From NCBI GenBank assembly GCA_963830365.1, contig CAWHMU010000023.1, positions 1 through 33,846 on the forward strand: 33,846 nt of DNA, in the 5' to 3' direction. A program made the position numbers and the translations under genes. Positions 7,239 through 24,925 of the stretch are shown here, piece by piece. The notes beneath the pieces are model-generated. The model had not been told where the DNA came from. It ran no database searches and saw nothing but the letters and a program-made list of their open reading frames with translations. How positions within the stretch are numbered: the first letter of the stretch is position 1; each line of letters opens with the position of its first letter. Origin of the DNA: an uncultured Chlamydiae bacterium (GTDB lineage: Bacteria > Chlamydiota > Chlamydiia > Chlamydiales > Parachlamydiaceae).

Positions 7239-8343
7239 TAATGGCAGCACCCCTTTAGACCCCCGTGTCAACGATCTAATCATCAGCCTGCTTCCTGAGC
7301 TGATCGGCAACCCCTCAAGTACCCATGCCTACGGACAAAAAGCCCGCAGTTTAATTAGCCGGGCGCGCAGCTCAATTGCCGCCTTTCTGCATGTCAAACC
7401 CCAGGAAATCATTTTCACCTCTGGCGGCACCGAAGGGGCCAATATGCTCATCCGCGGCCTGCTGCCGCCGCAAGCCGGCCACATCATCACCTCTGCCGCC
7501 GAGCACGCCTGCGTATTTACCACCGTCAAGCAGCTGGAGCTGTGCGGCTACAAGACGACTGTTTTGTCTCCCGGACTTTGGGGCGCGGTCACGGCCGAGG
7601 CCGTTGAGGCCGCCATCCAGCCCGCTACCAAGCTGATCGCGCTGATGGCCGTCAATAACGAGACGGGGGTGAAAACCGATCTTGCCGCCATCGGCAAAGT
7701 TGCCCAGAAGCACGGCATCCCTTTTTTCGTCGATGGCGTCGCGCTGCTCGGTAAAGAAGTGTTTGAGATTACCCCCGGCATCTCGGCCATGTCCTTCAGC
7801 GGACATAAGCTGCACGCGCTGCAAGGGATAGGTTTTTGTTATCTGCGCGGCGGCGTCAAATTCCAGCCCTTGCTGGTGGGCGGGGAGCAGGAGTTCGGCC
7901 GGCGGGCGGGTACGGAAAACGTCTTGGGCATTGCCGCGCTGGCAAAGGCTATCGAAGTGCTCTCTTGGGAACTGCCGGCAGCCTCGCTGCGCATGCAGTC
8001 GCTGCGCGATACGTTTGAAAAGACGCTCATGGAAGAGCTGCCGGGCGTGTCTGTCAATGGTCAAGGTCCGCGCACGGTCAATGTCAGCAACCTGGCTTTT
8101 GCAGGCGTCGATGGCGAGGCTATGTTGATGGGCCTGGACAGCGCCGGCATCGCCGCCAGCCACGGTTCGGCCTGCGCTTCGGGTTCGCTTGAGCCTTCGC
8201 GCGTGCTGCTCGGCATGGGGCTGCCGCTTGAGCTGGTGCGCTCTTCCATCCGTTTCTCCCTAAGCCGCTTCACTACCGGCGAAGAGATTGAGCGCGCCTG
8301 CCAGCTCATCAGCGCTCTGGTAAAACGCCTGCGCCAATCATAA
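7213..8343 (+). CDS. iscS: Cysteine desulfurase (NifS/IscS family)
   Basis: Motifs IYLDNNGST, GNPSS, FTSGGTE, NNETG, SGHK (PLP lysine), RAGTEN and SHGSAC. Overlaps the end of the PP2C gene. Confidence 0.9.
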   Translation: MNPRIYLDNNGSTPLDPRVNDLIISLLPELIGNPSSTHAYGQKARSLISRARSSIAAFLHVKPQEIIFTSGGTEGANMLIRGLLPPQAGHIITSAAEHACVFTTVKQLELCGYKTTVLSPGLWGAVTAEAVEAAIQPATKLIALMAVNNETGVKTDLAAIGKVAQKHGIPFFVDGVALLGKEVFEITPGISAMSFSGHKLHALQGIGFCYLRGGVKFQPLLVGGEQEFGRRAGTENVLGIAALAKAIEVLSWELPAASLRMQSLRDTFEKTLMEELPGVSVNGQGPRTVNVSNLAFAGVDGEAMLMGLDSAGIAASHGSACASGSLEPSRVLLGMGLPLELVRSSIRFSLSRFTTGEEIERACQLISALVKRLRQS

Positions 8344-8505
8344 AGCGCAAAGACAAGGCGGACGAAGCAGACACAAGGCGGACGAAGCCGACAATCGGGC
8401 ATGTATCCTAGTACCCATATATCTATATCGTCCGCTTTGTCCGCTAGCTGTTATAACTCATCTTTTGGCAACTTGGGTGTTTTGGCGAGTTCCCTTTCGG
8501 TAAGG

Positions 8506-10293
8506 TTAACTCCCGATTTTAACGACTTCTTGTTCTAGGGTGGCTGAAAGTGACTTCCAATAGTTGGTTTTCAAGGCTTTGCTTATGCGTCGGGCATCCC
8601 GCTTTAGATATCCCTTGATAAAGGTTTTATCAGCATCCGATAATGGTGATTTTCTATCCCACACCACCCAGTGTAAATGTTTCCAATGTTTTAGCAGTTT
8701 CTGGTCGCCATCTGCCAAGGCATTAATGGCGCTTGCTTCGGCCTGTTCCATCAGCGTCCATAAAGGGGAGGGGTCGGTAGGTTCCAGTTCATTGGAGGGA
8801 CTGCGTACGAAGCGATAAATATCGGCTAATGATTTGCCTAAAGAGGCGAATTTCTTGACTACCAGTGCGAGGGCGCGTGCATTCTTGGCCATTTGAGGGC
8901 CTAATTTGGCTTTGGAAACCGTCTTTTGTATCTGTGTTGGATTCAGTTGGCTGATAAGCTCGATAATTTCAGGACAAAAAGGCTCATTGGCACGTTGATG
9001 TTTATAAAGACCGTTCAAATTCCATAGTTTGTATGGCAAGATGGCATCGCAATCAATGGAAACCAGGTGGGGTTTGCCGTCAGTATCGCGGGTGACGAGA
9101 ATATTTTCGGGATGTCGATCTTCATTATACACCAGGATGTCCATCACGCCAATCTTCTGCAGCTCGGCCAGAGGGACTTCATTGAGGATCGGATTCCTTT
9201 CAAATTCATAGGCTGCTTCAGGGATATCGAGTCCGCCTTTTATGGTAGCATTCACTTTCACGCTAGGGTGAAAATTAATCACTGGGCCCGCATTTGGCAC
9301 CCAAGCCTGAAGGTAGCCTTCTTTGGTTTGCTGTCTTGGCGGGGAATGTGAAGCTTCGGCCTCCACATCAACGAAAAGGGAACTGGTCATGTTGGCCTTT
9401 CCGCCGGCTGGCAGAAGATTGCCGAAATCGAGCAGTTTGGCCAAATGCTGCCTCGCTTGCGTTTTTCCCTGTTCAAAGCTGCTCATTTTATGAAAATAAA
9501 TATCGTCAGCCGCGGCTGTTTGTTTCCGTTTGGCGGGGTCGGGATTTTGCGGTCCATTAGGCCGTTCATCTTCCGGCTTAAAAATAGCTAAGGGGGTGTC
9601 GAACTGGTCTTTGATTACATACAGACCGCTTGTCGTATCCCGTATAGGTTCCAGCCTCCCGCCATGTGCAAGGGCCTGGGCAACCTTTGCCTTCAGTGCC
9701 AGCGATTCTGTCTCAACGGCCCCGTTTTGCAAAGTCATCTGTGGCTCAATAGTTTCAGGAGTCAATGTGGCTGTATGATGCGCGGAAAAATCAATACCGG
9801 TTGATGGCAGGGGTGGCTGCGACATAATTGACGGATTTTCAGCTGCCGTGAAGATATTGAAAGTTATATTTAATGCCGGATTGCTTCGTCTGTCATTTTC
9901 TCTCTGCAGTGTTGAAGGGGTATTTGTTACATTTCCAATAAATTGCGTGGTGCCAAAGATGGCTCCGGATAGGGCCAGACGGGTAATGGCCTTATGCTTT
10001 TCACCCTTAAGGACGCAGCCGACACCCCATAACAGACATGACAGGGCCGAGCCCATGCTTGCAATGGAGAATCCATCCCACCGGCCGCTAGCCTCCGAGC
10101 TCGTGGCGACGGCATACCCGCCGATGGCCACATTGGCGGCGATGGCCAGCCGGGCGATATTGTCAAGACTGAATAGGTTAATAATTTTTTGCGTGGTGGC
10201 CGAAACAAGGCTGGGTTTGGCTCCATAGGGTGTGTTAAGGCCCACCGCCGGTGCCGGTTGCTGTCTTGTCTTAACATGTGAAGATATTGTCAT
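8506..10293 (-). CDS. Membrane-anchored phosphatidylinositol 3/4-kinase-like protein (type II PI4K-like), candidate effector
   Basis: Motifs SGLYVI...AIFKPEDE, GYLQAWV, DILVYNEDRHPENILV and LVSIDCD, with a hydrophobic N-terminal module. Confidence 0.75.
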   Translation of the reverse strand: MTISSHVKTRQQPAPAVGLNTPYGAKPSLVSATTQKIINLFSLDNIARLAIAANVAIGGYAVATSSEASGRWDGFSIASMGSALSCLLWGVGCVLKGEKHKAITRLALSGAIFGTTQFIGNVTNTPSTLQRENDRRSNPALNITFNIFTAAENPSIMSQPPLPSTGIDFSAHHTATLTPETIEPQMTLQNGAVETESLALKAKVAQALAHGGRLEPIRDTTSGLYVIKDQFDTPLAIFKPEDERPNGPQNPDPAKRKQTAAADDIYFHKMSSFEQGKTQARQHLAKLLDFGNLLPAGGKANMTSSLFVDVEAEASHSPPRQQTKEGYLQAWVPNAGPVINFHPSVKVNATIKGGLDIPEAAYEFERNPILNEVPLAELQKIGVMDILVYNEDRHPENILVTRDTDGKPHLVSIDCDAILPYKLWNLNGLYKHQRANEPFCPEIIELISQLNPTQIQKTVSKAKLGPQMAKNARALALVVKKFASLGKSLADIYRFVRSPSNELEPTDPSPLWTLMEQAEASAINALADGDQKLLKHWKHLHWVVWDRKSPLSDADKTFIKGYLKRDARRISKALKTNYWKSLSATLEQEVVKIGS

Positions 10294-10361
10294 TTGCCCG
10301 CCTCATAATGAATGTTCATTGATGGTTTCATTAGTGCATGCTCTTAATCGCGCGGAGTAAA

Positions 10362-11963
10362 TTAGCGCACGGTTTGATCGATCATAATTTTCAACTTGTC
10401 TTTCCGCAATGCGCCGGGCGGCTTGCCATTTGCCTTATCAGCACAGTGCCAGCCCCAGGTCGGTACGCCTGCTGTTTGCCCCATCCAATCGCCAGGACGC
10501 CATATCCCTTCTTTCGGGTCATTATAACTGATTTTTTCCTCTTTCCAGCCGTTCTGTTTGCGAACGAAGCATCCCTCTCTGGAAAATGTGTTCAAAGCTA
10601 ATTCAGTAGTGCCATAAGTGTCGCGAGGTTTTACGACTGTCATGACGCGATCCAGTAAGGAGCTGTCTTCCCTGATCAAACGGGCCAAGCCTTCTTGCTC
10701 ATGCAGCACGTCCTGATTGATGCACGTTCCTAGTGTGCGGCAGTGGTCTTTATAAGTCGCATAGTCGTTGCGTTTTTCCCAAAGCTTCTCGATGAGTTTC
10801 CGGCTGGCTTCATCTTTCCTAACAAAAAAGAGACCGGTGTTGACCGAGTCGTACTCCTTTCCTGTCCATGAAATGACATCTCTAGCGACGATCACACTGG
10901 TATCTTCCCCCCTGCGGAGGATGTCGATGGCTGCAAAGGGGTCGACTTTCATATTGGTGACGGGCATATCATCATCAGCCAGTACGTACCAATCTTCTAT
11001 TTTAGATTGCGCGGCTGGTTTATTCAACCATTCACGCAAAACGGCTACTTTATTCCAATAAGGCACGCAGTCTTTCGTTGAATGAATGCTATCAGAAGTT
11101 GTCGCACACTGTCCTTTCAATAAATTTTCAGAGACGACGCGATGTGTCAAACCCCAGCGCTCGGCATATTCCTTATGGTTGTCATCGACCAGCTTGGCCA
11201 GGGCCTGACGTTCCGGATTGTTTTCTGCGATGTAGGTTGATCCAAAGACAATGCGGCGTCCATGTTTCACCTTACCAGCCGGCACTTTGTTATTCTTTAG
11301 TGGGGGGGTGCGAGGGGGATCGGTTTTTGTTTTCTCGTCCGTGGGGATATCGTTTGGCCAAAAGCGCTGAAATATGTTTTTCGATTGAAAGTCACTTAAT
11401 TTTGCTTTTGCAGCAGCGAGTTTAGAGGTGGTATCAGCGAATTTAGCTTTGAGCCTGGCGTTTTTAGATGCGAGCCTAGTATTTCGATAATGAAGATTAA
11501 CATTTTCAGATCGAAGCTGAGCATTTTGCGATAGGCATACGGATGCATTGTGTCTTTGGTTCTTGTGGGTGGACATGACTTGTTGGGAGATGCCGGCAAT
11601 GGCTGCACCAAGTAGCATGCATTTGCCAGCTTTTGCTCTTTGACCTTTTAAGGCCGCGCCCATACCCATTAAACCGCAGGCTAAAGCGCTGCCATAAGCT
11701 GCAATGGCAAGCCCATCTAATTTGGCACCTAAGTCTGAACCTTTAAAAGCTACGGAAGCTCCTAAGGCAACACTTGCGGCAATAGAAATCTGGCCAATCT
11801 TGTCTAAGGTGATTTGGGTGCGGATAACCGATACAGTATTGCGGAGATAAGAAACACATCTACCAAAAAGGCCCTCAGAAGCAGGCGTGGTTGCCATTTT
11901 TATGCCGTCTAAAGCAGATGGTGGCTGACTAGGGGGGTGGTCGTTTTTAAGTTGTAAACGCAT
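10362..11963 (-). CDS. Membrane-anchored glycosyltransferase (GT34, GMA12/MNN10-like) with a coiled coil, candidate effector
   Basis: Motifs NHKEYAERWG, YWNKV, ADDDMPVTN (DxD), VNTGLFFVR and HEQEGL. Heptad-like stretch NAQLRSENVNL...AKAKL; hydrophobic N-terminal module. Confidence 0.75.
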   Translation of the reverse strand: MRLQLKNDHPPSQPPSALDGIKMATTPASEGLFGRCVSYLRNTVSVIRTQITLDKIGQISIAASVALGASVAFKGSDLGAKLDGLAIAAYGSALACGLMGMGAALKGQRAKAGKCMLLGAAIAGISQQVMSTHKNQRHNASVCLSQNAQLRSENVNLHYRNTRLASKNARLKAKFADTTSKLAAAKAKLSDFQSKNIFQRFWPNDIPTDEKTKTDPPRTPPLKNNKVPAGKVKHGRRIVFGSTYIAENNPERQALAKLVDDNHKEYAERWGLTHRVVSENLLKGQCATTSDSIHSTKDCVPYWNKVAVLREWLNKPAAQSKIEDWYVLADDDMPVTNMKVDPFAAIDILRRGEDTSVIVARDVISWTGKEYDSVNTGLFFVRKDEASRKLIEKLWEKRNDYATYKDHCRTLGTCINQDVLHEQEGLARLIREDSSLLDRVMTVVKPRDTYGTTELALNTFSREGCFVRKQNGWKEEKISYNDPKEGIWRPGDWMGQTAGVPTWGWHCADKANGKPPGALRKDKLKIMIDQTVR

Positions 11964-12100
11964 AAAAATCCTTATTTTATAACAATGCGTAATGATAGTT
12001 ATATATAGTAACGTATGTTATATCAGAATATTAATAATTTGTAAAGAAGTTGTTTTTAATGTAATATTTACTTGTGCTGTTTTTGTGATAATGGATTTTT

Positions 12101-12598
12101 GGGTCATCACACAAATGAGTGGTTGACAGAGATGACTACTCAAGAATTTATGACATGAAAGGTCTTTGCGGGGTGGGGTCAGGCTTGTGATTTGTGATTT
12201 GAAAGTCCTAAATACATTAGAAAGCCCGACTCCTTTCAAATCGCAAATCACAAGCCTGACCTCAATCCGTTCAGCCAAAGCCTACATTATGAGTTTTTGA
12301 GGTTCATCCGGTTTTATAGAACCCACCTAGAAAAGGATGCATAGAAATGGGGAAATGTAGGTAACACATCGGAGCAAAAATAACAGGATATTAGGATGGA
12401 CAGGATGAAAGATTTAAACTTTAGTTTGCCAACTTTGCGATTTACGTAGGTCTTGGGTGATCATCCTATTTTTCATATCCTGACCATCGTAATATCCTGT
12501 TATTTTTGCTTGCTCTTTTCTCTTTATAAAACTTGCAAAACCGGAAGAACCGTTTTTGAGATGTTAGCTCTGTCAACCACTCATTTGTGTGATGACCC
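12101..12598. mobile_element. MITE (outer element) with 31-bp TIRs and an 8-bp target-site duplication
   Basis: TIR GGGTCATCACACAAATGAGTGGTTGACAGAG (12101-12131) is inverted at 12568-12598. GGATTTTT is duplicated at 12093-12100 and 12599-12606. Confidence 0.9.
12301..12551. mobile_element. MITE (inner, nested) with 15-bp TIRs and an 8-bp target-site duplication
   Basis: Ends GGTTCATCCGGTTTT and AAAACCGGAAGAACC. GTTTTTGA is duplicated at 12293-12300 and 12552-12559. Confidence 0.88.
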
Positions 12599-12829
12599 GG
12601 ATTTTTTAGTTTAGTTTTAGGTTTGTGACTGTTGCATATGCTAATTTTATTTATTGTGGGCAGATCATCTATTAATTATATGTTCTTGCCATTTATATGC
12701 AGATAGGAAAATTTCAAATTGCGTCCCAAATAAAAGAAGGCGGAGCTCTCAGCCTGGCGGAGCGAAGCGCAGGCCTGGGTCATCCAAAACAACAATGGAG
12801 TCCATAAGAAACTGACAGGAAATTTAAGT

Positions 12830-14077
12830 TTACATGCGGGTGGAGACGCTGATGGTTTTGACATCGAGCAGTGAGGTCTCTTTGACGGTGAATTCGAAAG
12901 GGGCGATATAGATCTCTTCCCCTTTTTCAGGGTGATGGCCGAGGTGGTTGGCCAGTAGTTCCGACAGCGTGATGGTGGGATCTTTATCAAGGGTGATATC
13001 GAATTGGCGGTTGAACTCGCCGACGGTCATGTCGCCGGCGAAGGTCTTTTCGATGAGCATCAGCTTTTTCAGTTTCAGCAGCGTCGTTTCCTTGGTAGAA
13101 TAGGAAACCTCGCCGAAAATTTCTTCCAAGACATCATCGAGATTGATCAGCCCTACGGCCTTGCCCTGCTGGTTGAGGATGATGGCGACACTTTCGTTGT
13201 TGGTGCGGAACTGCTTCAATATCTGCATGATGCTGGCCTTCTCAGAAACGAACCATGGCGGCCTGGCATAATCGCGCACGCGGTGTGATTCAGCCGCCCG
13301 GATCAAATCCCTGGGATAGGCGATGCCAATGATATTGGAAAGGCTGCCGTTATACAGCAGGATACAGTCGGCACCGTTTTTATTGAGCAGCGTTTCGACC
13401 TGGGCCACGGTGGCATTATCGGGCAGAGTGGCGATGGAACTTATCGGTTCCATCACCTGGGTGAGGTCTTTGCCGCGCAGGCTGAAAATATTGGTGGCGA
13501 TGGCGCTGAATTCGGCACTCTCACTATCGGATGAGGATTCCTCATGATGCTCTTCAAGGATTTTCTGCAGTTCCTCTTGGCTTAAGTAGATGTTGGTTTC
13601 CGATTCTTTGCCGCCGACGATGAGGTTGCACAGTTTGGAAACGATTTCAAGGCACCATAAAAATGGCGCCATCAGTCTGGCCGAGGCATAGATTAACGGG
13701 ATGCCGATCATGGCCACATTCTCGGCGTATTGGCGGGCGGCAAACATGGGGGCCAGCTCTCCCAGGATCACCACCACGATCACTTGGGTGAGGGGCGAGA
13801 AATCGGGGTTTAAACCGATGGCGGTATAGAATTCGCGCGAGCATTCAGAGCCGATGACCAGGGCAATATTGACGCCGATAAGGGTGGTGCCAAAGAGTCT
13901 TGAAGGATGCTGCAGCAGGTAGTTCAGCCAGATGGCGCGTTTATATCCTTTGCTTACGTAGTACTGCAGGCGTACCTTGTTGAAAGAGACGCATGCCATT
14001 TCCAGCATGGAATACAACGCCAGCACAGCGATTGAGAACAGGTTGCAGATAAACCAAATCAGGGCGCTTTTATTCAT
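12830..14077 (-). CDS. Hemolysin-family CNNM/DUF21 + CBS domain protein (CT257-like)
   Basis: N-terminal TM region with YSMLEMA and GELAP, a CBS pair, the motif LINLDDVLEEIFGE, and a CorC-like C-terminus. Confidence 0.9.
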   Translation of the reverse strand: MNKSALIWFICNLFSIAVLALYSMLEMACVSFNKVRLQYYVSKGYKRAIWLNYLLQHPSRLFGTTLIGVNIALVIGSECSREFYTAIGLNPDFSPLTQVIVVVILGELAPMFAARQYAENVAMIGIPLIYASARLMAPFLWCLEIVSKLCNLIVGGKESETNIYLSQEELQKILEEHHEESSSDSESAEFSAIATNIFSLRGKDLTQVMEPISSIATLPDNATVAQVETLLNKNGADCILLYNGSLSNIIGIAYPRDLIRAAESHRVRDYARPPWFVSEKASIMQILKQFRTNNESVAIILNQQGKAVGLINLDDVLEEIFGEVSYSTKETTLLKLKKLMLIEKTFAGDMTVGEFNRQFDITLDKDPTITLSELLANHLGHHPEKGEEIYIAPFEFTVKETSLLDVKTISVSTRM

Positions 14078-19678: not shown

Positions 19679-21121
19679 ATGACTGGTTCATTAGGTCCAA
19701 AAAATCCAAATGCAGAGCGACAAGTATCAGAGCATCCAGCAATTTTAACCACTACAACAACGACAACTACGACCGGCAGAAAATTAGCGGAAATAAAACC
19801 AACGAGATTTTTCTCGCCTGGTGTAAGCTTTTTTAAAAATATTGCCTATCAGATTAGCAAATTCTTCAATGGATTATTTAGAACAGAGTCGCATGCAGAC
19901 TCGAAATATGACCGTAAGTTTATTAATGAAAAAATTACACTTTTGAATGACCTTGTAAAAAAAATTAACAGGGGTGAAACGGTAGATTCAAAGACATTGA
20001 TCGCGATCGAAAAAGAAACATGCGATTTCCAAACGATGCCGGAAACCAACCTGCAAGAGCTAAGTGCCTTCAAGCAGCAAGATATACGAAAGATTCATGA
20101 TAAAGTTGCTGAACTGCTAAAGCTAGCCTCTTCTCATCCAGCATCGGATGAATGTAATGAGGGTGTTCCTGACACAACGTATAAAGACGGATTACCCCCA
20201 CCCCCGGCATCTTCGATTCCGCTAGCCAGCGGACCACTCCCTACTAAGCCAGGAGAAGTTGCTGGCAGCAGGCTTAATGCTCTTGAGGCGCTGAAAGCCG
20301 AAATTACCAGTTTCCAATCAGAAGCACCCCAAAAACCAAAAAATCGAGGAGAAAATAGAGCGGCGGATGACGCCTGGGACAAGCATATCGCTCAGCACAA
20401 AGATCTGCACAAAAAAATTGAAGAGATCCTATTTGAAGGCAAAGGTAAGATAGAACAACTAAAGGGAGATGTTAAGCATTATCTTCCAGCGTTGGGGGCC
20501 GAAAAATATCTTGAATTGATCGAACAGCAAATAAGTGCGCTGGCAGCTAAGCCAAGTCCAAAAGTACTGGTCAGTCCCAGTGAAGAAATAAAACAATCCA
20601 CCCCAGCCACTGCACAACAATCAACACAAGCAACAGCTCAACCCGTCTGGGACCCAAACGTAACTTACAGATATGTGCCTGATAAACCAGCATCGGAAAA
20701 CGGCATACCACCTCAAGTGCCGGCAGTCTCCGCAGCCACAGACAGCGCACAAGCAGGCGAAGGTGTGCAAACGCCGTCTACTGCCGAGCTGGCTAAATTA
20801 AGAAGCGAAGTTGAAACGCAACAACAGTTAGCCAGAAATATCAAAAGAGATGAGGAAGTTAGAAAGCAACTCGATAAATTGATAGATGCCGCTGCGGAAT
20901 ATACAAAAGATAAAACAAAGTTTCCTAAGGATCTCAGCGAGCATTGGGCTGAAGTCAAAGAGGTGTTTGCCGAAACGAAGGAGCAAATTTTAACCGAAGA
21001 AGACATTAAAGCTCAGGTGAATGCCATCCTCGATGTGGTAAAAGGCGATGAAGAGGGCGTTGAAACATTGCCATCCCAACTTCAGGTTTATATAAAAAAT
21101 ATAGTCGATCTTTTGCGTTAA
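19679..21121 (+). CDS. Hypothetical protein, low-complexity and coiled-coil, effector-like
   Basis: RBS GGAGG; 480-aa ORF with a T9 run, Pro-rich patches and charged helical regions; A-rich codon usage; no recognisable domain. Confidence 0.75.
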   Translation: MTGSLGPKNPNAERQVSEHPAILTTTTTTTTTGRKLAEIKPTRFFSPGVSFFKNIAYQISKFFNGLFRTESHADSKYDRKFINEKITLLNDLVKKINRGETVDSKTLIAIEKETCDFQTMPETNLQELSAFKQQDIRKIHDKVAELLKLASSHPASDECNEGVPDTTYKDGLPPPPASSIPLASGPLPTKPGEVAGSRLNALEALKAEITSFQSEAPQKPKNRGENRAADDAWDKHIAQHKDLHKKIEEILFEGKGKIEQLKGDVKHYLPALGAEKYLELIEQQISALAAKPSPKVLVSPSEEIKQSTPATAQQSTQATAQPVWDPNVTYRYVPDKPASENGIPPQVPAVSAATDSAQAGEGVQTPSTAELAKLRSEVETQQQLARNIKRDEEVRKQLDKLIDAAAEYTKDKTKFPKDLSEHWAEVKEVFAETKEQILTEEDIKAQVNAILDVVKGDEEGVETLPSQLQVYIKNIVDLLR

Positions 21122-24162: not shown

Positions 24163-24925
24163 TGCTAAGTCCGGAGCGTATGCGGAGGACGTTTGCTAAT
24201 AGCCCACCGTGACTGAGCGATTAGCGAAGGAACGGTGGGGACGGCCCAAAGTTTCATCGAGCCCGGAGCGGAAGCGAAGGGCGATTGATTTCATGCAGAT
24301 CACTCTTGCATCCAAGTCGTGCCCCATTGACGATTCAATAGTTCAATTTCATCATCGAAGGATTTTAATTTATGATGCTCCTTTTGATTTTCAATATATC
24401 TTCTAATTTGTTCTACATGAGATTTTGAACTAGAGAATCCTCCGTACCCTTCTTGCCAAGAAAAACTTCCAAATCCCTCTTTTTTAATCCATGAAGTACT
24501 GTATGACTTCACTTCTTTCACCAACGTGCTCAAGGCTATAGCAGGATGAAGATTTAATAGTATATGTATATGATTATCGGTTCCATTAATTTGTAAAACA
24601 GGGGATTTGCTTTCTCTAGAAATCCCACACATATATTGATGCAAGCGAGTTTCAATTTCCATCGGGATTAAAGAGGATCGATCTTTCGTTGCAAAAATTA
24701 TATGAAGATAATTCTGAACACAACTATGAGCCATATCCTATCCACGTAAAGAATTCGCTAATGTATCAACAGCTCAAATTTCGGTCCATTAATATCGAAT
24801 CAATCGCCCTTCGCTTTCGCTCCGGGCTCGATAAAATTTTGCTCTATTCCCACCGTTCCTTCGCTAATTGCTCATTCACGGTGGGCTATTAGCAAACGTC
24901 CTCCGCATGTGCTCCGGACTTAGCA
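24163..24925. mobile_element. HUH transposase gene bracketed by 128-bp inverted repeats (24163-24290 and 24798-24925)
   Basis: TGCTAAGTCCGGAGC...GAAGGGCGATTGATT recurs inverted as AATCAATCGCCCTTC...GCTCCGGACTTAGCA. Confidence 0.88.
24300..24734 (-). CDS. tnpA: IS200/IS605-like Y1 (HUH) transposase, RAYT-like
   Basis: Motifs HIIFATKDR, HUH NHIHILL, WQEGYGGFS and catalytic Tyr in RYIENQKEHH. No tnpB is present. Confidence 0.93.
   Translation of the reverse strand: MAHSCVQNYLHIIFATKDRSSLIPMEIETRLHQYMCGISRESKSPVLQINGTDNHIHILLNLHPAIALSTLVKEVKSYSTSWIKKEGFGSFSWQEGYGGFSSSKSHVEQIRRYIENQKEHHKLKSFDDEIELLNRQWGTTWMQE

Follow-up and report, generated by a model that had tools for sequence, protein, structure and literature searches.

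An environmental chlamydia carries, side by side, the genes for a kinase with the fold of the type II PI4Ks (PI4KII) and for a putative glycosyltransferase (GT), and the two proteins have a hydrophobic anchor in common. Our favoured reading, held with about evenly balanced confidence, is that they form an exported kinase-GT module in which the kinase phosphorylates a glycan, a sugar or a glycosylated inositol lipid head group. The window (by which we mean the whole 33,846-nt stretch of DNA that was analysed) belongs to a genome of 2.73 Mb that is 82% complete and has a GC content of 0.486; it also contains a match to the CT253-family lipoproteins which, at E 7.6e-27, lies below the cut-off and which speaks for a chlamydial genome. 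The kinase gene (P0001; 8506-10293) and the GT gene (P0004; 10362-11963) lie on the reverse strand of the window, as do all features of the two genes given below, with the GT gene upstream and its end 68 bp before the kinase start.

The kinase gene is an intact open reading frame (ORF) of 595 aa. Its product begins with an S/T/P/Q-rich N-terminus, which is followed by the three-helix anchor, by the PI4KII-fold domain (residues ~191-570; 8584-9723; delimited by alignment, model and fold match) and by a helical C-terminal extension. A profile search against Pfam returned PF00454 (PI3_PI4_kinase) at 35.9 bits (E 9.6e-9; cut-off 27.1) and no match to Fam20C or POMK, and no NCBIfam model matched the protein. 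For residues 185-595, an AlphaFold2 model based on a 73-row alignment reached a pLDDT of 95.7; with this model, Foldseek gave human PI4KIIalpha as the best match (E 2.4e-13) and VIA-align also ranked PI4KIIalpha first (Z 23.6, rmsd 3.8, 273 aligned). Among the best 50 VIA-align rows the next kinase folds were Fam20 (Z 13.1), CtkA (12.8), CotH (11.3), actin-fragmin kinase (10.5) and MavQ (7.8), and LepB, AnkK, OpiA, Risk1 and POMK were absent from these 50 rows. A preliminary description of this DNA, made from its letters alone, had taken the protein for a kinase of PI3/4-kinase-like fold, and both the profile match above the cut-off and the closeness of the model to PI4KIIalpha bear this out. 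Going by the model, this is a PI4KII-fold protein of a chlamydial genome; it fails three sequence features of the type II PI4Ks and is therefore not classed here as a PI 4-kinase.

A search of 1.84 billion representatives with the kinase yielded 415 matches, 32 of them with E <=1e-30, and the best 150 of the 415 were retrieved. Together with the chlamydial loci these gave an alignment of 174 distinct kinase domains (8 duplicates and rows of <180 profile positions were dropped), in which the window kinase belongs to a clade of 47 rows, or 46 after removal of one near-duplicate; the other 127 domains constitute the outgroup. The clade branch was supported by FastTree (0.997) and, in a 65-row subset, by SH-aLRT (95). 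Residues were mapped onto PI4KIIalpha by alignments and by the residue list in the portion of PMC3974213 used here, with a numbering offset that we inferred. On this mapping, the ATP-binding K239 (K152 of PI4KIIalpha) lies in FKPEDE (residues 238-243; 9565-9582), GYLQAWV spans residues 326-332, and the catalytic loop NEDRHPEN (residues 390-397; 9103-9126) provides the base D392 (D308) and the metal ligand N397 (N313); all three motifs, which the preliminary description had called retained, are found in the intact ORF. The IDCD that it had read in place of the ID[HN]G of type II PI4Ks is likewise what residues 413-416 (9046-9057) spell. Its phrase ‘altered metal-binding motif’ holds for the motif, in which D416 has replaced the Gly at the second position after the metal Asp, but not for the metal ligand, which is unchanged since D414 is equivalent to D346 of PI4KIIalpha.

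Asp at this second position was found in 43/46 clade domains compared to 1/127 outgroup domains (L079), while the position between the two Asps, occupied by His in 116/127 outgroup domains, has been released in the clade and is variable there. IDCD is thus one spelling of a clade-wide IDxD, and a DxD present in 43 of the 46 domains is neither a private mutation nor a sequencing error. At the alphaC position, which is Glu in 126/127 outgroup domains, the window kinase has Q282 (9448-9450), and Gln occurs there in 43/46 clade domains compared to one of the 127 outgroup domains. An independent origin of the Gln-Asp pair in L079 was considered and found no support: this sequence joins the clade weakly (52) in the 65-row tree and falls on the other side in FastTree, and, its placement being inconsistent, the covariation of Gln and Asp within the PI4KII fold may be one event.

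By analogy with POMK, where the second Asp of the DLD motif has this role, we infer that D416 is now the ion-pair partner of K239; the Tyr kinase VLK and CotH have DLD-type motifs too. In the glycan kinase POMK the alphaC Glu is lost and the Asp that occupies the DFG-Gly position pairs with the Lys, and the substitution D229G did not reduce catalysis (cited part of PMC5142810). Since D229G is harmless, a DxD alone is no signature of a sugar kinase, and POMK serves as a precedent for activity but does not prove that the substrate is a sugar. The same precedent bears on the possibility that loss of the alphaC Glu is loss of catalysis and that the protein is a pseudokinase or a nucleotide-binding regulator of the GT. 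The Glu is lost throughout the clade, and at least one of the four catalytic residues (K/D/N/D) is missing from 6/46 clade domains (one of them a truncated row) compared to 4/127 outgroup domains, both of which agree with such a role. However, 40/46 clade domains, including the window kinase, keep all four residues at an identity of 35-50%, and POMK has activity although it lacks this Glu (again from the cited part of PMC5142810), and we regard a pseudokinase as very improbable. As a separate observation, clade kinase domains that do lack catalytic residues adjoin, or lie in tandem with, intact ones at L034 (6794-9388), L033 (7260-9515) and L039 (12697-15003), an arrangement that suggests, by analogy, kinase-pseudokinase pairs as in Fam20C/Fam20A.

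The PI pocket of PI4KIIalpha has been derived from an MD model and mutagenesis (PMC3974213, in the portion used). Its putative residues E157, T307 and L349 align with R244, E391 and A417 of the kinase, R244 coming right after FKPEDE. Only the E157 position of the three is conserved in the outgroup, where it is Glu in 109/127 domains; in the clade it is Arg in 31/46. Of the ATP-site residues that have been listed for PI4KIIalpha, most are retained (K239, P295, Q329, L399, I413 and D414). The sequence therefore does carry signs of the altered specificity that had been suggested for this protein, as the pocket positions are changed across the whole clade. These changes weigh against the alternative that the kinase is a phosphoinositide kinase effector, which would produce PI4P or some other PIP at the inclusion membrane and be co-delivered with a GT that has a separate target, although Arg at the E157 position could equally suit an already phosphorylated PIP. 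Such an effector would fit with the largely intact ATP site and with type II PI4Ks being the closest relatives in both fold and sequence, and effectors of this kind are known in Legionella, Francisella and Rickettsia (parts of PMC9758233 and PMC7298712). On the other side, paralogues that keep the canonical Glu and ID[HN]G exist in chlamydiae separately from the clade, and we consider this alternative possible but doubtful.

The GT gene encodes 533 aa that comprise an anchor, a possible coiled coil and a putative GT-A domain of GT34/A064R type. The match to PF05637 (GT34) is borderline: with a cut-off of 23 bits, the full-length protein scores 22.7 and its domain 25.2. The protein contains conserved Cys pairs and a DDD metal/NDP-sugar motif (residues 330-332; 10968-10976), which is invariant in 11/11 rows, its outer Asps being invariant in 36/36. 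The model of the GT domain (pLDDT 94.5) was nearest to domain 1 of chlorovirus A064R (Z 18.6, rmsd 3.0, 203 aligned) and to plant XXT1, a GT34 enzyme (Z 17.4, rmsd 3.7, 236 aligned); it shares with them the GT-A fold and the DxD motif and differs from them in its extra Cys pairs and in an identity of 11-17%. Judged by the model, the partner is a GT-A glycosyltransferase with a DxD, similar to GT34 and A064R. Domain 1 of A064R is a retaining, Mn-dependent beta-L-rhamnosyltransferase (cited part of PMC9614988). Sequence search of the PDB with the GT gave no match, the named matches are all from Chlamydiae or from unclassified or mislabelled MAG records, and 0/94 pattern matches in viral contigs were confirmed. 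A predicted complex of the kinase and GT domains scored 0.00 and was counted neither way. A scan for promoters and terminators stayed at chance level (7 vs 7.5; 2 vs 5.9) and hence does not demonstrate co-transcription of kinase and GT, and Rfam gave 0 matches in window positions 8300-12900. Three tandem GT genes at another locus (L088, 2281-9740) have classic signal peptides and N-terminal regions of 370-570 aa that match no Pfam family.

The kinase-GT linkage recurs across chlamydiae. In an even sample of 401 genomes the kinase was matched in 23 at E <=1e-5, and 13 of the sampled genomes, from 6 family codes, have a clade kinase (12 with E <1e-30, and G104, which was confirmed separately); the GT was scored in 400 of the 401 and matched in 24. 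The GT is present in 12/13 clade-kinase genomes compared to 24/400 scored overall, counts that come from related and not from independent genomes. Kinase and GT are fused or adjacent in 10 of the 13; in G301 and G320 the GT is elsewhere in the genome, apart from the kinase, and G104 is without a GT, its kinase being fused to a NAGPA-like domain. By the clade profile, a strong clade kinase is found in only 12 of the 24 GT-bearing genomes, and one more, G389, has the divergent Gln-Asp kinase L079. Among the best 150 of the 415 matches, the GT is in the same chain in 12/38 clade members (a number that includes two short fragments assigned by score) compared to 0/112 others. Both fusion orders occur, GT-kinase in P0003, P0013 and P0026 and kinase-GT in nine other proteins; since P0003, which is from the same family, is ordered anchor-GT-kinase, the pair in the window can be interpreted as this arrangement split in two, with the anchor duplicated. 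Loci obtained with the GT as query added further kinase-GT neighbours at L085, L101 and L102. The distances in the kinase and GT trees correlate (Mantel rho 0.48 over 21 pairs; 0.39 without 5 near-kin), and the groups that the trees share indicate co-inheritance among kin, not co-evolution. The phosphoinositide kinase effector in the style of LepB that the preliminary description had in mind disregards this partner, which is the strongest signal, and the absence of GT fusions from the 112 outgroup matches also speaks against it. A better candidate for a plain effector of that kind, judged from its sequence, would be a second PF00454-like protein of the same genome (L002; contig C36, 150111-152279, reverse strand; ~720 aa; DRHEEN and IDN motifs), which was left out of the tree as its alignment was too weak. 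We found no literature on the chlamydial clade or on the pairing of kinase and GT in a search that covered titles and abstract openings, largely of open-access journals. At L037 and L039-L042, the kinase-GT fusions have C-terminal tails of 290-560 aa with only weak TPR/PPR-like matches.

Pfam analysis of 51 of the 150 retrieved proteins revealed further fusions, to NAGPA (3), GT11 (1), ankyrin (4) and DnaJ (1); NAGPA-like domains are on P0009, P0010, P0032 and L044 and GT11 is on P0033. Every catalytic fusion partner found is thus a carbohydrate enzyme, and it is this, together with a PI4KII ancestor that phosphorylates a lipid-borne cyclitol ring and a pocket that has been rewired, which leads us to a sugar or a glycosylated inositol head group as substrate; the phosphoinositide kinase effector leaves the fusions to three carbohydrate-enzyme families unexplained. 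Other evidence tempers our preferred reading. The ankyrin and DnaJ fusions in 4 members indicate the host cytosol and not a lumen, chlamydial effectors are often domain-shuffled so that a fusion may mean co-delivery and not a shared substrate, and the closest solved fold to our model is a true PI 4-kinase (Z 23.6, compared to 13.1 for Fam20), which weakens the case for a glycan kinase. The ankyrin and DnaJ fusions, and the TPR/PPR-like repeats of others, suggest protein targets, and would suit a protein kinase similar to plant PI4Kgamma/UbDK, CtkA or actin-fragmin kinase, which would share a host protein target with the GT, its phosphorylation priming or competing with glycosylation. Some PI4KII-type plant enzymes phosphorylate proteins in vitro (as cited in part of PMC3823935), and the fold is common to CtkA (Z 12.8), CotH (11.3) and actin-fragmin kinase (10.5). 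We nevertheless think a protein kinase unlikely: the pair in the window has no protein-binding repeats, the nearest folds of the GT, A064R domain 1 and XXT1, transfer to sugars and not to amino acids, and the GT11 and NAGPA fusions indicate glycans.

NAGPA as an obligate third part of the system was rejected: a search of the 82%-complete genome did not find it, and it is not enriched in kinase genomes (3/13, compared to 89/401 overall). The NAGPA-like domains do allow for a lipid mark that no host enzyme makes, where the kinase would phosphorylate an inositol lipid, the retaining GT would cap it with a sugar and the NAGPA-like phosphodiester glycosidase would uncap it, a scheme that strikes us as quite improbable. 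Its product would be a glycosylated or sugar-phosphodiester-capped phosphoinositide, with an eraser carried by some members, and, if true, it would amount to a bacterial writer-writer-eraser system that hides the lipid identity of the inclusion from the PIP readers and phosphatases of the host. The fullest form of the system that we observed is at L102 (2756-11580), where two GT genes, a kinase gene and a NAGPA-like gene follow each other in a row with abutting stops and starts, and a GT11-kinase fusion gene is divergent from them.

The anchor is a module of ~100 residues that forms a predicted three-helix hydrophobic segment both in the kinase (residues ~31-135; 9889-10203) and in the GT protein (residues ~41-144; 11532-11843), and its N-terminal position in the kinase agrees with the membrane tether proposed previously. 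A profile search for it in the 2.73-Mb genome returned exactly 2 ORFs, the kinase and GT genes, and in relatives it is carried by GT proteins, by the fusion P0003 and by the kinase P0039. Chlamydial Inc proteins have a bilobed hydrophobic hairpin near the N-terminus; the anchor helices are three, without a clear two-helix hairpin, and are moderately hydrophobic (mean KD 1.3-1.6). In a set of 12 anchors, basic residues prevail in the loop that joins helices 2 and 3 (+38/-8) and acidic ones in the loop that joins helices 1 and 2 (+6/-21), which, by the positive-inside rule of membrane topology, gives an N-in, C-out orientation if all three helices span the membrane. This would place the catalytic domains of kinase and GT on the non-cytoplasmic side of one membrane, a predicted topology that is at odds with a phosphoinositide kinase effector. 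Export of both proteins from the bacterial cytoplasm seems likely from these features, and the conserved Cys pairs of the GT are in line with it. A crude signal-peptide screen was passed by 7/29 proteins checked, all 7 from two genomes with one family code; other members start with S/T/P-rich tails or ankyrin repeats, and such N-termini suggest type III delivery. The genome contains a type III secretion FHIPEP gene, a point that also favours a phosphoinositide kinase effector, whereas T2SSF (PF00482) was not found in the 82%-complete sequence, so that a Sec-to-type II route is unsupported here. The compartment reached (periplasm, inclusion lumen or host cytosol) may differ between members.

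In the mechanism that we propose for a module directed at a glycan or a glycosylated inositol lipid, the anchor would keep kinase and GT together in a single membrane, their catalytic domains facing its non-cytoplasmic side, where they would act sequentially on one acceptor. This acceptor would most likely be a glycolipid or glycan on the surface of the bacterium or at the inclusion membrane; the GT would build or extend it, and the kinase would phosphorylate the resulting sugar or glycosylated inositol head group. ATP and nucleotide sugars would be supplied by the host, and the phosphate would have the role, known from Fam20B or POMK, of capping or licensing the glycan.

The preliminary description had also considered that the kinase was acquired from a protist host. 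The sequences nearest to the clade are eukaryotic PI4KII-type proteins and several chlamydial paralogues that are separate from it and have kept the canonical Glu and ID[HN]G, and 2/20 proteins that we looked up carried a eukaryote label, both being euglenozoan. Descent from a eukaryotic gene is plausible on these comparisons. The phylogeny, however, names no donor: the clade has a stem of its own, and the deepest nodes of the trees do not fix its order relative to protist-type PI4Kgamma and the other chlamydial paralogues. A recent transfer is ruled out by the composition of the kinase gene (GC 0.49, GC3 0.50), which matches that of the genome (0.486), so that any transfer is old.

The closest sequence relatives of the clade are the type II PI4Ks, including the euglenozoan proteins. 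With this group (human PI4KIIalpha/beta, plant/protist PI4Kgamma; PF00454) the clade shares the fold (Z 23.6), the G-loop-FKP, the LQ hinge, the DxH..N loop and the ID metal ligand; it differs in the changes from alphaC Glu to Gln, from ID[HN]G to IDxD and from the putative PI-pocket Glu to Arg, and also in lacking a CCPCC insert and in having extra C-terminal helices, a three-helix anchor or signal peptide, and a GT partner. Two secretory glycan kinases, the protein O-mannose kinase POMK and the xylose kinase Fam20B, are also comparable. In POMK, too, the alphaC Glu has been lost and an Asp gained in place of the DFG Gly (PMC5142810, cited part); both enzymes act outside the cytosol as part of a glycosyltransferase pathway, as proposed for the kinase, and Fam20 is the second-best fold family for the kinase model. 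POMK, however, is near the eukaryotic protein kinases and probably not homologous to the clade at family level, and the likeness would be convergent; by analogy, the kinase may work like POMK or Fam20B without being classed as a member of either. LepB, MavQ, LegA5/AnkK, OpiA and Risk1 are similar in being atypical PI3/PI4K-like kinases of intracellular bacteria that are aimed at host membranes, but among the best 50 fold rows the kinase model is far closer to eukaryotic PI4KII (MavQ reaches a Z of only 7.8), and the parts of PMC9758233 and PMC7298712 used here describe a GT partner for none of the effectors of this type. If our preferred reading is true, a eukaryote-type lipid-kinase scaffold has been turned into a carbohydrate kinase in chlamydiae, with an active-site rewiring that POMK reached independently, and environmental chlamydiae export a small pathway that builds and phosphorylates glycans, which would bear on the ways in which these symbionts modify the vacuole they live in or their own surface. 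It would also follow that reading PF00454 matches in intracellular bacteria as PI kinases by default is unsafe.

Several further elements were observed around the gene pair. A MITE-like element of 498 bp (window 12101-12598) lies 137 bp upstream of the GT gene; it has 46-nt terminal inverted repeats, nested inner repeats and a folding z of -16.5, and no Rfam match was obtained for it. The genome contains five near-full copies of the element at 95-96% identity, 4/5 of which have an 8-bp target-site duplication, and 93 partial matches. Where the kinase gene and a cysteine desulfurase-like gene converge, two direct repeats of 20 nt and, after them, a partly complementary stretch lie between the genes (window 8347-8450) and are possibly a bidirectional terminator. 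Elsewhere in the window, positions 19679-21121 hold an ORF of 480 aa with a strong AT skew and without a confident family match, and positions 181-1023 and 24300-24734 hold an IS3-type integrase ORF and an IS200-like transposase, respectively.
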